DNA from: an uncultured Gemmatimonadales bacterium
GTDB lineage: Bacteria; Gemmatimonadota; Gemmatimonadetes; Palauibacterales; Palauibacteraceae
Direction: 5' to 3'
Assembly (NCBI GenBank): GCA_963783385.1
Contig: CAWANJ010000009.1
Span: forward strand, 544,001-608,000
DNA length: 64,000 nt
Shown here: one piece after another, positions 17,025-41,690 of the stretch
Numbering within the stretch: position 1 is the stretch's first letter
How the letters are laid out: every line of letters begins with the position of its first letter
Translations under genes and position numbers: made by a program
Notes under the pieces: generated by a model
Database searches by the model: none
What the model was told of the DNA's origin: nothing
Seen by the model: the letters and a program-made list of their open reading frames with translations, nothing else

Positions 17025-17891
17025 ATGGCAGCGAAGGGCTCGAAAGGTGGTGGTCGGTCCGGGGGCTATGCGAGCACCGAAGATGCGCTCGCGGTCGGAA
17101 TGGCGCGGACCATCGACTGGATGCGTGGTCACCAGCGGGCGGTCATCCTCGGCGTGCTGGTGGCGGCCGCGCTGGCGGCGGGACTCGTCTACTACAGGGA
17201 CTACAGGAGGAACCTGACGGCCCGGGCCGTGACTCAGCTCGAGCAGCTGGAGGCCGAGCTCGCGCAGAGCAACGCCCCGGCGTCGGCCGTGGGCAGGCTG
17301 CGGGACTTCCTCAACCGCTTCGGCGGCACCCCATCGGCTGACGACGCGCGGCTGCTGATGGCCCGGATCCAGCTGGACGAAGGCGCGGCCGCGGACGCGG
17401 TCAAGACGCTGGATCCGCTGGCACACCGTGCGCTCGACACGCCCATCGGCTACGCCGCCACGCGCCTGCGGGCGGACGCCTACGCGGCGGCCGGCGACCG
17501 GGCCAGCGCCCTTCGGACGCTGGACGACGCGGCCCGAAACGCGCGCTTCCCCTTCCAGCGGAACGACGCTTCGGCGGAGCTCGCCGATCTACTCGTGCAG
17601 GCGGGCCGCTACGACTCGGCCGCGTCCATCTACCGGCGCCTGGCGCAGGACTCGGCCGCCTCGCCCGAGGGGACCGGCGTGTACGCGATGCGGCTCGGGG
17701 AAGTGCTGGCGCTCAAGTCGGCGGGAGCCCCGCCGCCCGCGGGTCCTCCGGCCGACACCGCGGCCCGGGACACGACGCTACCGCCCGGCGTGGGCGCCCC
17801 GACAGCGTCACCGACGCTGCCGGTCGCTCCCGCGGGCTCGGCAGCCGCACGCCCCGGTTCGACGTCGAACGGCAGGTCGGGCGGGTCCTGA
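17025..17891 (+). CDS. YfgM-like membrane-anchored TPR protein with Pro/Ala-rich tail
   Basis: W-x3-H/N followed by a single TM helix (AVILGVLVAAALAAGLVYY), then TPR-like helices. Confidence 0.75.
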   Translation: MAAKGSKGGGRSGGYASTEDALAVGMARTIDWMRGHQRAVILGVLVAAALAAGLVYYRDYRRNLTARAVTQLEQLEAELAQSNAPASAVGRLRDFLNRFGGTPSADDARLLMARIQLDEGAAADAVKTLDPLAHRALDTPIGYAATRLRADAYAAAGDRASALRTLDDAARNARFPFQRNDASAELADLLVQAGRYDSAASIYRRLAQDSAASPEGTGVYAMRLGEVLALKSAGAPPPAGPPADTAARDTTLPPGVGAPTASPTLPVAPAGSAAARPGSTSNGRSGGS

Positions 17892-17909: not shown

Positions 17910-19805
17910 TCACGGCCCCGGGGGAGCCAGCGGGATCGTGAAGGCGAAGCGCGATCCCACCCCGAGCTTGCTTTCCGCGGTGATCTTGCCGCCGTGCGCC
18001 TCCACGATCTTGCGCGAGATGGCCAATCCGAGCCCCGTGCCCGCCCGAGCATCGAGCCCATGGCTGCCTGGCTCGAACACGGTCTCGAGCTCGCCCTCCG
18101 AGATCCCCGACCCGCTATCGGCCACCACGCAGCGTACCTGGGCCGAGCCCGCCGAGGCACGCAGCGCGATCCAGCCCCCCCGGTCCGTGTAACGGAGCGC
18201 GTTTCCCACCAGGTTGGACAGAACCTGCATGAGACGCTCGCGGTCCCCCCGGATCCGGGGAAGGTCGCCGTCCACTTCGAGCCGGAGGTGGATGCCGGAG
18301 TCCTCGACGAGCTGTCGGAACAGCTCCTCGACCTCGGCCAGGAGGGAAGGCACGTCCACCGGCTCCATCGCCATGCGGAGCCGCCCATCCTCCTCGGGCC
18401 CCCACTCGAGATCCTCGATCAGGTGCCGGACCCGGTCCACCGTGCGCAGGACCGGCTCCAGGTGCTCGCGGGCGGCGTCGACCGAGCGGCCGGCCGGCGT
18501 GTCCTGGAGCAAGAAGCCGACGTGGATCGCGATGCGCTGGAGAGCGTTTCGCACGTCGTGCGAGACGATCTGGGACACCTGCTCTCGGGCCGAGAGCGCG
18601 CTCTGAGCCTGCTCGTAGAGCCGGCAGTTCTCCAGGTCCAGCGCGATGCGCTGGGCCAGCTCCCGGGCCAGAACGTAGTCCTCGAGACCGAAGCCCGGGC
18701 CCTTCCCGGAATCCAGGAAGACCAGCGCGCCACGCACGGGAGCCCGGCCGCCGCCCCCCGTGAGAGGAAGCATCATCCCCCGGCGCGGGGGAGGGGAGCC
18801 TCCGGGAGGACCGCCGCCCCCACCGGCCTCGGGACCGCCGTCGCCCGATGGGAAAGCCAGGCCACGCCCGCCGGCTATCGCCCTGGCCAACCACCCGTGC
18901 GGGTCTCCGGGCGACAGCCGGAAGCGCGCCTCGAAGTCGCCCAGAGCTTCCCGGGCCTCGCCGTCGCGGAAGGCCAGGGCCACGCGTCGTAGCTTGCCGT
19001 CCCGTTCCAGATAGGCGGCGAAGCCGTCGGTGAACTCGCTGACCACCACGTGCGCGGCACGCTGCAGGCTTACGATCGGGTCCAGGGACCGGGCCAGGAG
19101 CTCGCCCGCGTGCTCCAGGAAGCTGGCCCGCCACGCCGCCCGCTCGGCGGCTTCCCGGGCTACTTGCTCCTGGGCGAGGGCCCTGCGACGCTCCTCCAGC
19201 AGCCGTTGCTGGGAGAGATCCCGGAGGATCCACCGCACCCCCGTGATGCGGCCGTTTGCGGCCCGGATCGGCCTGGCCACGACGTCCACGGCGACCTCAC
19301 CCGGCTCCAGGTCCGGTCCGCGCGGGCACACCCGACCCTCCCATTCGGCTCCGCCGGCACCGCTCCTGAACCGCTCGAGCCGCAGGCGGAAGCCGTCGCG
19401 CTCCTCCTCCGGGATGTAGCCCAGGGCCGACGCGTCGACGAGCCGTTCCGAGGGGACGCCCAGCAGCGTTCCCGCCGCCCGGTTGGCCTCCCGGATGATC
19501 CCATCCGGGTCCGTGACCAGGTAGGGCGTCGGCGCGAATTCGAACAGCTCACGGTACCGGGTCCTCTCGACGTCCACGAGGTCCCGCTGAGCGGCCAGGG
19601 CGGCGTCCTGCCGCGCCAGAGCCCGCCTGGCTCCGGCCAGCTCCTCCAACACGCTCTCCAGCTCCTCCCGATCCGGCCCCAAGCCTGGATCGCCCGGCTG
19701 GCGCGCGCGAGCGGACCCCGGCTCGGGTCCGGCCGGGGACCTAGCCGATTCCCACCACGAGCCCCGCTCGACCGAACGAGGCTCCGAACGGTCCCGTTCG
19801 CCCAC
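17910..19805 (-). CDS. Cytoplasmic PAS/GAF sensor histidine kinase
   Basis: PAS ([25 protein letters not shown]), GAF-like segment, H-box SHDVRNAL, N-box [11 protein letters not shown]1 DSGSGI, G2 GTGLGL. SD AGGAG before the GTG. Confidence 0.92.
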
Positions 19806-19854
19806 CGCGCTCCTTTCCTCCGTTGATCCGCGAATCGTCCGGGCACCCCTTCGC

Positions 19855-19884
19855 CATCTAGAGTCCGCGAGTCCGCAAAGTCAA
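19855..19884 (-). promoter_or_regulatory. Candidate sigma70 promoter of the histidine kinase, with a tandem 8-bp repeat in the spacer
   Basis: Minus strand reads TTGACT-N18-TAGATG. The spacer contains (GCGGACTC)x2 at 19861-19876. Confidence 0.4.
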
Positions 19885-20051
19885 GCTCCGGCGGGGAGTC
19901 GCCCCGATGGGTCCGGACGGCAGCCCCGCGTCGCGCTCGCCGTCCCCGCGCACATCCACCGGTGTATCACATGAGGTCAACGGCAGTATCGCGTGGTATA
20001 CAGGTTATATACGGAAGTCGATCATACGCCGCGCTCCGATTATCCCCGCCG

Positions 20052-20060
20052 TTATCCACA
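20052..20060 (+). promoter_or_regulatory. Perfect DnaA box TTATCCACA
   Basis: Exact consensus. A 2-mismatch box TTATCCCCG starts 12 bp upstream at 20040. Confidence 0.65.
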
Positions 20061-20087
20061 TGGCGCATAATGTATATTATGTTAACA
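20060..20087 (+). other. dif: dif site (XerC/XerD chromosome dimer resolution site)
   Basis: ATGGCGCATAA-TGTATA-TTATGTTAACA vs E. coli dif GGTGCGCATAA-TGTATA-TTATGTTAAAT. It is intergenic and AT-rich, and lies where gene orientation and KOPS converge. Confidence 0.95.
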
Positions 20088-20201
20088 AGCGTCGGACACG
20101 CACCCCATCCCGTGGGCCGGACATCCCGGCCACGTCCCCCTCCGCCCCGGGAGGCCGCACCACACCGCAGGTCCCCTCCTTCCTGGAGACCGGCCGGGCC
20201 C

Positions 20202-20957
20202 TCACAGGCGCCCGAACAACGTCTTGATGCGCAGCGCCCACACACGCCACACTGCTTCCCGCACGATGGCCCCGGACATCTTGCTCTCTCCCGTGTCGCG
20301 GTCCACGAACACGATCGGCACCTCGCGCACCTCGAACCCGAGCCTCCAGGCACGGAAGCTCATCTCGATCTGAAAGGCGTAGCCGGTCGAGTCCACGTCG
20401 GAGAAGTCGATCGCCTCGAGGACTTCCCACCGGAAGCACTTGAAGCCGCTGGTGGCGTCGGTGACCCGGAGTCCCGTGACCCAGCGCGCGTACTTGTTGG
20501 CCAGCCAGCTGAGGAGGAGCCGGGACATGGGCCAGTTCACCACGTTCACGCCCCGGAGGTACCGGGAGCCGACCGCCACGCCGCAGGTCTCGGAGGCCTC
20601 CAGGAGATCCGGTAAGTACTTGGGATCATGGGAGAAATCTGCATCCATCTCGATCAGCACGTCATAGGCTTCGCCCAGGCCGAGACGAAAGCCCTCCAGG
20701 TAGGCGGAGCCCAGCCCCAGCTTCCCCGCCCGGTGCAGGACGCGCAGGCGCGGCTCCCCGGCGGCCAGGCGGTCGGCGAGCTCCCCGGTGCCGTCCGGGG
20801 ACGCGTCGTCGACCACGAGGATGTCGATCCTGGGATCGGCGGCGAGGATGGACGGCACGATGCCCGCCAGGTTCTCTACCTCGTCGTAGGTGGGGAGTAC
20901 GACCAGCGCCCTGCCGACGCCGCGGCCCTTCGCCGCCTTCGATCGCGTAGTGCTCAT
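20202..20957 (-). CDS. Polyprenol monophosphomannose synthase-like GT2
   Basis: LPTYDEVEN, VDDASPDGT, GLGSAY, EMDADFSH, DATSGFKCFR, GYAFQIEM. Confidence 0.92.
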   Translation of the reverse strand: MSTTRSKAAKGRGVGRALVVLPTYDEVENLAGIVPSILAADPRIDILVVDDASPDGTGELADRLAAGEPRLRVLHRAGKLGLGSAYLEGFRLGLGEAYDVLIEMDADFSHDPKYLPDLLEASETCGVAVGSRYLRGVNVVNWPMSRLLLSWLANKYARWVTGLRVTDATSGFKCFRWEVLEAIDFSDVDSTGYAFQIEMSFRAWRLGFEVREVPIVFVDRDTGESKMSGAIVREAVWRVWALRIKTLFGRL

Positions 20958-21979
20958 CCCTCGGGACTCTCCGGCGCCTCGTGACCCGGTGGCGCGGCGC
21001 CCTCCGCCCCGCCCTCGTTGGACGACGTACCCGGAGCGCCGTCGGACGAGCCGCCCCGCGCGATCGCACTCGCAGCGGCCACGCCCACCAGCTCGCTGGC
21101 CACCGTCCACACGCGCGCCGCGATCGCCACGGCGGCCGCCGAGGTCGCGGTCAGGAGCGTGAGCGCCAGGAGAAGGGCCGTCATGGCTCCCTCCCGCACG
21201 ACGAGCCCGCCGGGGGCGAGCAGGACCAGGTAGCCGGCCACGTAGCTGGCGGCGAACACGCCGGTGGCCGTGAGGACCCCCACGGGTGCCGTGCTCCACA
21301 GGCCCCGCAGCAGGCACCAGAACCCGAGGCCGTAAGCCAGCCAGGAGAGAACGAGGGCCACGCCCGCCGCGCCCAGGTCGCGGCCCCGTGGCGCCGCGGA
21401 CTCCAGCGATTCCTCCCCGGTCAACCTGGCGGCGAGGCGCGTCACCCACCGGAGGAGCGCCGGATGCAGGAGGAGAGCCAGGACCAGGATGGCCGCGGCC
21501 CACACGAGAGGGCTGCCGCTGTGCGCCGCAGCCAGATCTCCGCCCAGCGTGAGCAGGGCCACCGCCGCCCCGGTGAGCAGCGTGACCACCTGGTAGCCGA
21601 GCGAGGAGGACAGGGCCAGCGCCCCGGAGCCGCCCGTCCGCCGCAGGTGCAGGGCCAGCCCCGAGAGCTGCCACACCTTCCCGGGGATGTAACGTCCCAG
21701 GTTGGTGGCCATCCACACGGCGACGCCACGCCGGTAGCCGAGCCTCCCTCCGCCCGCACGGTACAGGTGGACCCAGGTGCCGCCCATCCAGCCCAGGTTG
21801 AGCGTGGCCAGCACCAGCGCCGCGGCCAGCCAGCCGGGCGACAGGTGGAAGGTCGGCCCCGCTCCGTGACGGAGGGAGGCGAGCGCGCTCCACTGGCGGC
21901 GGAGGAGCAAACCGACGAACAGGACCGCGGCCAGGAAGAACAGACCGGTCACGACCCGGCCCAGAGCCGGTCGCTTCAC
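20954..21979 (-). CDS. Lysylphosphatidylglycerol synthase TM / UPF0104 flippase-like protein
   Basis: LGRYIPGKVW and PGGLVVREG motifs. Multi-TM protein. Confidence 0.85.
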   Translation of the reverse strand: MKRPALGRVVTGLFFLAAVLFVGLLLRRQWSALASLRHGAGPTFHLSPGWLAAALVLATLNLGWMGGTWVHLYRAGGGRLGYRRGVAVWMATNLGRYIPGKVWQLSGLALHLRRTGGSGALALSSSLGYQVVTLLTGAAVALLTLGGDLAAAHSGSPLVWAAAILVLALLLHPALLRWVTRLAARLTGEESLESAAPRGRDLGAAGVALVLSWLAYGLGFWCLLRGLWSTAPVGVLTATGVFAASYVAGYLVLLAPGGLVVREGAMTALLLALTLLTATSAAAVAIAARVWTVASELVGVAAASAIARGGSSDGAPGTSSNEGGAEGAAPPGHEAPESPEG

Positions 21980-40796: not shown

Positions 40797-41690
40797 TCAT
40801 CCGCGGGGATGGAAGCTGCGGTGCACCTGCTTGAGGTAGGCGCGGTCCACGTGCGTGTAGATCTGCGTCGTGCTGATGTCGGCGTGGCCCAGCATCTCCT
40901 GCACCGCAGCGAGGTCCGCCCCGCCCTCGAGGAGGTGCGTGGCGAAGGAATGCCGGAACGTGTGCGGGCTCACCGACCGGCGAATGCCGGCCCGCTCCAC
41001 GTGCCGGCGGACGACCTTCCAGGCGCCCACCCGCGTCAGGGGTCGGCCGTGGTGGTTGAGGAACACCACACCGCGGCTCTCGCCCCGGTCCAGGCGGGGA
41101 CGCGTTTCCCGAAGGTAGCGGCGCAGCGCGTCGATCGCACGGGCGCCCAGGGGCACGAGGCGCTCCTTGGAGCCCTTTCCGCGGACCCGCAGGAGCTCTT
41201 CGTCCAGCAGCAGGTCCAGGATCTCCAGGCCCACGAGCTCGGAGACCCGCAGCCCCGCGCCGTACAGCGTCTCCAGCATGGCCCGGTCCCGGAAGGCCAG
41301 CTCGTGCTCGATCGGAACGGCCGCCAGGATGCGCTCGACCTCGGGGTAGCTGAGGACGTCGGGCAGGGAGCGGCCGGACCGGGGCGATTCCAGCCTCTCG
41401 GTGGGGTCCGAGTCACAGTGTCCTTCGGCCACCGCGAAGGCGAAGTACGCCCGGATCGCGGACAGCTTGCGGGCCACGGTGGAGCCCGCCAGCCCGCGCT
41501 CGACCAGGTCGACGACGAAGTCCCGCAGTCGTCCGTAGTCCACCTCGTCCGCACCGACGGCCCCCCCGGCGCGCACGAACGCGGCCATCTGGCGGCAGTC
41601 CCGCACGTACGCTTCCACCGTCCGGTCGGCCAGCCCCCGCTCGAAGCGCAGGTAGTCCTCGAACGGCTCCAGGAAGAACTCGCGGCTCAC
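40797..41690 (-). CDS. xerD: Tyrosine recombinase XerD
   Basis: ERGLADRTVEAY, RDRAMLETLYGAGLRVSEL, GKGSKERLVP, SPHTFRHSFATHLL, LGHADISTTQIYTHV, HPR. Confidence 0.93.
   Translation of the reverse strand: MSREFFLEPFEDYLRFERGLADRTVEAYVRDCRQMAAFVRAGGAVGADEVDYGRLRDFVVDLVERGLAGSTVARKLSAIRAYFAFAVAEGHCDSDPTERLESPRSGRSLPDVLSYPEVERILAAVPIEHELAFRDRAMLETLYGAGLRVSELVGLEILDLLLDEELLRVRGKGSKERLVPLGARAIDALRRYLRETRPRLDRGESRGVVFLNHHGRPLTRVGAWKVVRRHVERAGIRRSVSPHTFRHSFATHLLEGGADLAAVQEMLGHADISTTQIYTHVDRAYLKQVHRSFHPRG

Follow-up and report, generated by a model that had tools for sequence, protein, structure and literature searches.

A putative oriC-type DnaA-binding module abutting the chromosomal dif site of an uncultured Gemmatimonadales bacterium

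The dif site and the boxes beside it

We analysed a stretch of 64,000 nucleotides from an uncultured Gemmatimonadales bacterium (G000:C9:544001-608000, hereafter the window, whose numbering is used unless a contig is named), in which the XerC/XerD recombination site dif is directly adjoined by DnaA boxes. The source genome (G000) amounts to 3,543,605 bp in 9 contigs, with 71% GC and an estimated completeness of 92%. The dif site lies on the forward strand at 20060-20087 and reads ATGGCGCATAA-TGTATA-TTATGTTAACA, a 28-bp core in an 11-6-11 layout with inverted inner arms. By analogy with E. coli dif, the XerC-binding arm (ATGGCGCATAA) was placed at 20060-20070, the central region (TGTATA, identical to that of E. 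coli K-12) at 20071-20076, and the XerD-binding arm (TTATGTTAACA, with a TTATGT.AA core conserved across the family) at 20077-20087. The 23 contiguous bases at 20063-20085 are identical to E. coli K-12 dif, which is located between yneL and hipA inside GGTGCGCATAATGTATATTATGTTAAAT, and this 23-mer is found exactly once in the chromosome of 5405 of 5426 complete E. coli genomes.

No second dif-like site was found in the 3.54 Mb of G000 at up to 9 mismatches in 28, and among 41 relatives, 11 had a dif match, with one site each. Along the 996-kb contig C9, the cumulative GC skew climbs as far as the 10-kb bin that ends at 560,000 and declines from there; dif is at position 564,060 of the contig. 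The genome also encodes the proteins that act on such a site. A xerD gene is found on the reverse strand about 21 kb from dif, its homologous part at 40797-41663 belonging to a longer open frame (PF00589; 351.9 bits for the TIGR02225 XerD model, with a cut-off of 329.6). Outside the window, contig C1 encodes an XerC-like protein (317 bits, under the XerC cut-off of 335, with the subfamily model passed) and carries an FtsK_SpoIIIE match (G000:C1:166691-167306) split over two adjacent reading frames, which could be a frameshift or an assembly error. Because of the 23-base identity to E. coli, the single copy, the GC-skew peak and the encoded XerD, XerC-like and FtsK proteins, this is the genuine, single chromosomal dif at the replication terminus.

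The DnaA box consensus is TTWTNCACA. An exact high-affinity consensus box (TTATCCACA; PMC8287927) occupies 20052-20060 on the forward strand, and the final base of this box doubles as the first base of the XerC arm, so that box and arm overlap by 1 bp. Upstream in the same orientation is a weaker box of the TTWTCCCC type (TTATCCCCG, 20040-20048), separated from the strong box by a 3-bp spacer (CCG, 20049-20051). Both boxes had been pointed out in an earlier note on this DNA, and both are there as described. A third, degenerate box that the note placed at 20005 fared less well: the co-oriented TTATATACG is present at 20005-20013, but it is unconserved in three relatives (G003, G002 and G001) and was dropped from the element. 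The AT-rich island in a GC-rich window that the note described is also real, with a GC content of 58.5% at 19900-20099 versus about 71-77% around it. After the two boxes come five GC-rich base pairs (TGGCG), followed by AT-rich DNA.

The strong box is rare, and the genome-wide count of its 9-mer that the earlier note proposed puts this in proportion. In the window, TTATCCACA is found once versus 0.05 copies expected (at least one copy in 5 of 100 shuffles). In the whole genome, on both strands, there is again this one copy versus about 2.8 expected from base composition, together with 87 further sites at one mismatch. Since about 2.8 copies are expected and one is found, the rarity by itself is unremarkable; the excess over chance lies in the position and the conservation of the box.

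Conservation of the module and its counterpart at the origin

The family comparison set comprises 114 genomes from 20 genera, and a degenerate dif pattern was matched in 104 of them. Two genera carry the box: g1 (G000, G001, G002 and G003) and g10 (G012, G210, G211, G212 and G213, of which G211 has no match to the dif pattern). The earlier note had proposed to ask whether relatives keep the box at a constant distance from the XerC arm. They do, as the box is kept at the same offset in seven of the eight dif-bearing genomes (three of four in g1 and all four in g10). The 9-mer at this offset is TTATCCACA in G000 and G002, TTGTCCACA in G003 and G012, CTGTCCACA in G210, TTTTCCACA in G212 and GTTTCCACA in G213. 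Under these substitutions, positions 2 and 4 remain T and positions 4-9 remain TCCACA, and the variant TTGTCCACA is of the type used in this organism's own origin. TTWTCCCC, 12 bp upstream of the strong box, is invariant in all seven genomes, and the 3-bp spacer varies (CCG, CAT, CGG or GAG). To the left of these 21 bp, no alignment could be made between the flanks of G000/G003, G002 and the g10 genomes. Between G000 and G012, dif itself differs at 4 of 23 positions, and the boxes are nonetheless kept.

Across the family, the XerC arm is more variable than the XerD arm, as is described for Xer sites in a recent preprint (bioRxiv 10.1101/2024.04.05.588136). By eye, the outer A of the XerC arm is retained in most box-less family members. 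In one genome of genus g17 (G263:C72:40084-40136), a second partial copy of the XerC arm precedes dif (ATGGCGCATAAT...ATTATGGCGCATAAG), which could be the scar of an Xer-mediated integration.

The counterpart of the module is found at the replication origin, outside the window. The dnaA gene is located on contig C6 at the cumulative GC-skew minimum, and oriC is the 283-bp dnaA-dnaN spacer (G000:C6:387079-387361). Its boxes are ATGTCCACA, TGTCCACGG, CCGTCCACA, GTGTCCACA and CGATCCACA, several of them of the nnGTCCACA type. Read in gene orientation, it carries ATGTCCACA-TGTCCACGG-TCC-(CTA)4 followed by AT-rich DNA, that is, tandem TGTCCAC boxes, a short GC spacer and, on the other strand, four 3'-GAT-5' DnaA-trios. 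The basal unwinding system consists of tandem DnaA boxes, a spacer, 3'-GAT-5' trios and AT-rich DNA, the rule being one or more boxes, a spacer of up to 16 bp and at least three trios, as outlined in PMC8287927. The dnaA-dnaN spacer is thus predicted to be a well-formed origin of textbook layout. The strict box-plus-trio pattern is present in 19 of 26 dnaA loci of the order.

oriC also contains TTTTCCCCC-GA-CCGTCCACA, the same pair of TTWTCCCC and TCCACA that is found at dif. In 3.54 Mb, the composite TTWTCCCC-N(0-15)-TCCACA exists exactly twice, at dif and in the dnaA-dnaN spacer; from the 20 TTWTCCCC sites of the genome (about 98 expected) and base composition, we estimated about 0.04 by chance. 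In the whole family, the composite is found in 16 of 114 genomes, at 23 places. All six genomes tested, namely the four of g1 together with G012 and G212 of g10, have a copy in oriC; it is on the contig that carries the DnaA AAA+ match, at a distance of about 650 bp, and their only other copies are at dif. An alignment of the six origins shows the composite as one of two conserved islands, in which TTWTCCCC and a TCCACA box stand together and are co-oriented. Judging by these sequences, the module is specific to lineages whose origin has the same pair.

The layout at dif resembles the basal unwinding system in its two co-oriented boxes, the GC-rich TGGCG and the AT-rich DNA that follows. Unlike that system, dif has no run of 3'-GAT-5' trios (a lax match to three NAN repeats lies 15 nt from the box, inside the AT-rich dif), and the AT-rich DNA is the Xer core itself. 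For want of a proper trio run, we make no case for origin-like unwinding at dif. As to DnaA itself, genomes of family f1 have a single strong Bac_DnaA match, and 10 of 11 genomes of the sister family f2 have a second, weaker one (about 141-161 bits, in open frames of about 400 aa) besides dnaA.

The neighbouring genes bear on the history of the locus. The ancestral left neighbour of dif is a TPR_21 gene (17025-17891, forward strand), a family that also flanks the XerC side in G002, G212 and G012. In G000, a PAS histidine kinase gene (17910-19805, reverse strand) is found between TPR_21 and the boxes. On the right is an open frame (20202-21893, reverse strand) whose C-terminal part is a family-2 glycosyltransferase (GT2), conserved on the XerD side in G002, G210, G212, G213 and G012. 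The genes around dif are convergent, with TPR_21 and the kinase on the left and GT2 on the right. The order TPR_21-dif-GT2 is common to G002, G212 and G012, the left flank of G003 aligns with that of G000, and the right flank aligns in all four g1 genomes. Because G000 has the kinase gene in between and the synteny is otherwise shared, the boxes stayed with dif through a rearrangement of the left flank. The shared TPR_21/GT2 synteny also indicates that the locus is chromosomal and not an integrated element, and the neighbours examined include no phage or plasmid genes.

In 19000-21000, the sole Rfam match is far under threshold (E 0.93, 20816-20904), and a search of 19700-20300 for sigma-70-like promoters and intrinsic terminators found none. 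An AT-richer stretch upstream of the boxes (GGTGTATCACATGAGGTCAACGGCAGTATCGCGTGGTAT, 19950-20000) can be aligned between G000 and G003 and in part with G001, not with G002. It has no Rfam, promoter or terminator match and may be part of the upstream region of the kinase gene.

Boxes at dif in other lineages

We scanned 185,579 species genomes for GCNCATAA-N6-TTATGT with a perfect TTRTCCACA at a distance of 2-32 bases on the XerC side, where a gap of 3 to GCNCATAA corresponds to a box abutting the 11-bp XerC arm. This gave 49 loci, of which 33 have gap 3, five have gap 2 and 11 are scattered over gaps 7-18. The gap-3 loci belong to Haliea, Halioglobus, Pseudohaliea, Seongchinamella, Parahalioglobus, Pseudohalioglobus, Mangrovimicrobium and gammaproteobacterial metagenome-assembled genomes (MAGs). 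Gap 2, the spacing of G000, is represented by three Gemmatimonadota-type records, one Haliea and one Actinomycetes MAG. We did not take the last as a further lineage, as discussed below.

The scan itself required a box; a box-blind sample was taken from the family of Seongchinamella unica (Halieaceae), in which 118 of 151 genomes yielded 123 dif sites (L067-L189). A DnaA-type box at gap 3 is present at 59 of these sites (28 TTRTCCACA, 9 TTWTNCACA and 22 nnnTCCACA). Two more sites have a box at gap 2, and the other 48 offsets, on both strands, gave three matches in total. Position 5 of this left-hand box varies (C, A or G), in line with the consensus TTWTNCACA. A second co-oriented box lies 19 bases beyond the XerD arm, and the two tend to be found together: 59 sites have both boxes, 58 neither, four only the right one and two only the left one. 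As related genomes are not independent of each other, the P value of this association was given no weight. Between the XerD arm and the right-hand box, box-bearing Halieaceae sites have a conserved stretch of about ATTTGGGCACACAG, which might represent an additional weak box or be bound by some other protein.

The module of G000 and that of Halieaceae are alike in that the ACA end of the box faces the XerC arm, a polarity that recurs, and in the fixed offset (0 bp in Halieaceae, -1 bp in G000). Halieaceae differ in having a single left box with a second box past the XerD arm and ATTTGGGCACACAG in between, in lacking TTWTCCCC and in belonging to another phylum. In one Halieaceae-type MAG (G745:C1:758906-761782), a segment of about 160 bp comprising left flank, box and dif is present twice in direct orientation, 2,840 bp apart. 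The insert between the copies has an open frame of at least 437 aa, which, judging by its N-terminus and not by a profile search, looks like an IS21-family transposase.

A third arrangement is found in the G044 family, where 25 of 33 genomes have dif. In four genomes, TTATCCACA is located 11 bases ahead of GCCCATAA, and by eye 6 of the 25 dif sites have nGTGGAnAA directly after the XerD arm, with the ACA end toward dif. This is a family of low-GC MAGs of about 2 Mb in which convergent DnaA boxes bracket dif (loci L035, L043 and L054), one or two of them abutting the XerD arm (GTGGATAAGTGGA). E. coli dif is without an adjacent DnaA box.

Possible roles of the module

We read 20040-20087 as a single element, a dif site with a putative 21-bp oriC-type DnaA-binding module on the outer edge of the XerC half-site, by which the loading of XerC would be gated. 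We hold this reading tentatively, at somewhat less than an even chance. Its parts stand differently. DnaA probably binds the module at dif in vivo; given such binding, it seems to us an even question whether selection acts on Xer/dif activity rather than on DnaA control. DnaA would occupy the strong box and cooperatively fill the weak box, as at the matching element of oriC. As box and arm are 0 to -1 bp apart, the footprints of DnaA and XerC would touch or exclude each other, and DnaA occupancy would act in cis on XerCD-dif. The most likely action, in our view, would be that DnaA sterically gates XerC loading and hence the XerC-initiated, FtsK-independent strand exchange; FtsK translocation into dif would clear DnaA and relieve the gate. 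The earlier note had suggested a possible initiator-terminus coupling element, in which DnaA could gate XerC binding or FtsK-driven recombination. In general terms, such coupling stands as a well-supported reading because the offset is kept in two genera, the motif is otherwise found only in oriC and the arrangement recurs in Halieaceae; the box at 20005 is no part of it.

Accessory control from the XerC side also has a precedent at cer (ColE1) and psi (pSC101). There, about 200 bp of accessory DNA on the XerC side steers the outcome of recombination, independently of FtsK, by binding PepA with ArgR or ArcA, as set out in the preprint cited above (bioRxiv 10.1101/2024.04.05.588136). Like cer and psi, the locus in G000 has candidate protein-binding DNA on the XerC side of an XerC/XerD core. 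Unlike the plasmid sites with their 200 bp, the module is 21 bp long, touches the arm, resembles DnaA boxes and belongs to the terminus dif of a chromosome that encodes FtsK. An accessory sequence of the cer/psi type was rejected for G000, since sequence conservation extends no further than 21 bp from the arm and the DNA beyond cannot be aligned; sites for ArgR, ArcA and PepA were not searched for.

Several observations weigh against the gating of XerC by DnaA. The element is dispensable, as G001 in genus g1 has a decayed version of it. By eye, no box at this offset is seen in the other 96 dif-bearing genomes of the family (18 genera), and G282 and G005 have weak look-alikes. The pattern TCCACA-N(2-3)-dif was found in 0 of 400 further genomes of the phylum (146 other genera, no additional g1 or g10 genome), a sample whose dif-carrying share was not established. 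The seven box-bearing genomes may represent a single event. A tree of DnaA domains III-IV from 26 genomes (omitting loci L222, L225, L226 and L227) supports g1 (96/99) and leaves g10 unplaced, and one or two origins of the module within the family are possible. The weak box deviates from the DnaA consensus at positions 7 and 9 and could belong to another origin-binding protein, and the spacing within the composite is 3 bp at dif versus 2 bp in oriC. DnaA occupancy and any effect on XerC are what we infer from the sequences. The Actinomycetes MAG (L059) has the box at the same gap in one of 53 matched genomes of its family, and we took this case as chance. Finally, the layouts differ, with two boxes on the XerC side in Gemmatimonadota, one abutting XerC and one 19 bp past XerD in Halieaceae, and boxes on the XerD arm in the G044 family, so one shared mechanism across the lineages is not assured.

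As the main alternative, the module might serve DnaA and not Xer, as a DnaA control site at the terminus of the datA/DARS or titration kind, which we regard as unlikely. In that case, a permanently bound, DNA-bending XerCD-dif would take the architectural role that IHF has at E. coli datA, DARS2 and oriC, and late replication or the visit of FtsK at division would provide the timing. At datA and DARS, at least three boxes stand in fixed arrangements, and some of these loci also have IHF or Fis sites. The module has two boxes only and none of these arrangements, and a locus of the datA/DARS type was rejected accordingly, the candidate at 20005 being unconserved (IHF sites were not searched for). 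Titration by one strong box, which the earlier note offered as a 'replication finished' signal, is also weak on its face, because 87 further one-mismatch sites exist beside it. What speaks for DnaA control is that the module copies a sub-element of oriC and contains the sole perfect consensus box of the genome, exactly at the terminus, and that fixed spacing to a bending complex would suit an architectural partner. Non-origin loci of DnaA boxes that regulate DnaA are moreover established in E. coli: datA, DARS1 and DARS2 are conserved boxes outside oriC at defined positions and in origin-like arrangements, according to PMC4585315. Unlike these loci, none of which is at dif in E. coli, the module consists of two co-oriented boxes fused to a recombinase site. 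A purely positional role would need no offset of 0 or -1 bp, and other offsets are almost unseen at the 123 Halieaceae sites. The near-invariant offset thus argues for physical coupling rather than mere location at the terminus.

It is rather improbable that the protein binding the 21 bp is not DnaA but, for example, a TTWTCCCC-recognising, origin-associated regulator of this lineage, with the likeness to DnaA boxes partly a coincidence. TTWTCCCC is the more strictly conserved half of the module and a poor DnaA box; it is underrepresented in the genome, as noted above, and is present in the oriC of g1 and g10 only. On the other hand, the proximal 9-mer is a perfect DnaA box whose variants stay within DnaA-box types, plain DnaA boxes without TTWTCCCC are found at dif in Halieaceae and the G044 family, and in oriC TTWTCCCC is paired with a co-oriented TCCACA box.

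We consider it quite improbable that the boxes have no function, being chance boxes in the AT-rich DNA by dif that persist by ancestry and by hitch-hiking with a strongly conserved neighbour. The loss of the element in G001 without obvious consequence, its narrow distribution in the phylum, a possible single ancestor of g1 and g10 (shared synteny) and the lone unconserved case in Actinomycetes would fit such a history. Against it, the flanks and the 3-bp spacer diverged freely and both 9-mers were kept, the boxes stayed where dif itself changed between G000 and G012, the only other composite copy of each genome is found in oriC, and the fusion was kept at one offset across many Halieaceae genera. 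Very improbable is that the boxes mark the end of a Xer-integrated mobile element (IMEX) with DnaA boxes for its own replication: such boxes are common in plasmid origins (for example PMC1950889) and G745 has its two direct copies, but the G745 insert carries an IS21-like transposase frame and not a replicon, and an attachment site was rejected for G000, which has no second dif-like site, no element genes by dif, and ordinary chromosomal neighbours in conserved synteny.

Returning to gating at dif, a broader proposition is conceivable, and we are more doubtful of it: that DnaA and XerCD-dif are directly coupled in cis and that this coupling has at least three evolutionary origins, one for two Gemmatimonadota genera, one for a large clade of Halieaceae and one for the low-GC G044 family. 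The initiator or its nucleotide state might license or block the last step of the chromosome cycle, or an XerCD/FtsK event at dif at the time of division might reset DnaA. The parts are known, namely non-origin DnaA-box loci and Xer accessory sites; the fusion of box and dif and its recurrence appear new. The earlier note knew of no characterised DnaA site abutting dif, and we likewise found no report of one in a literature search with little reach into subscription journals. It is in E. coli that the known DnaA control loci were discovered; to our knowledge, none of them is at the terminus.

In practical terms, a perfect box at the terminus could mislead origin-prediction programs that score DnaA boxes. 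A DnaA module at dif would make a link between origin and terminus testable with one DNA fragment and three or four purified proteins. Cultivable marine gammaproteobacteria with the module (Haliea, Halioglobus and Pseudohaliea) also offer genetics, and, with about half of the sampled Halieaceae dif sites box-bearing and half box-less, natural controls exist. It is still an open question how bacteria connect the completion of one chromosome cycle with the beginning of the next. If the coupling proposed here is true, these lineages would have a terminus-to-origin feedback that no model organism shows.
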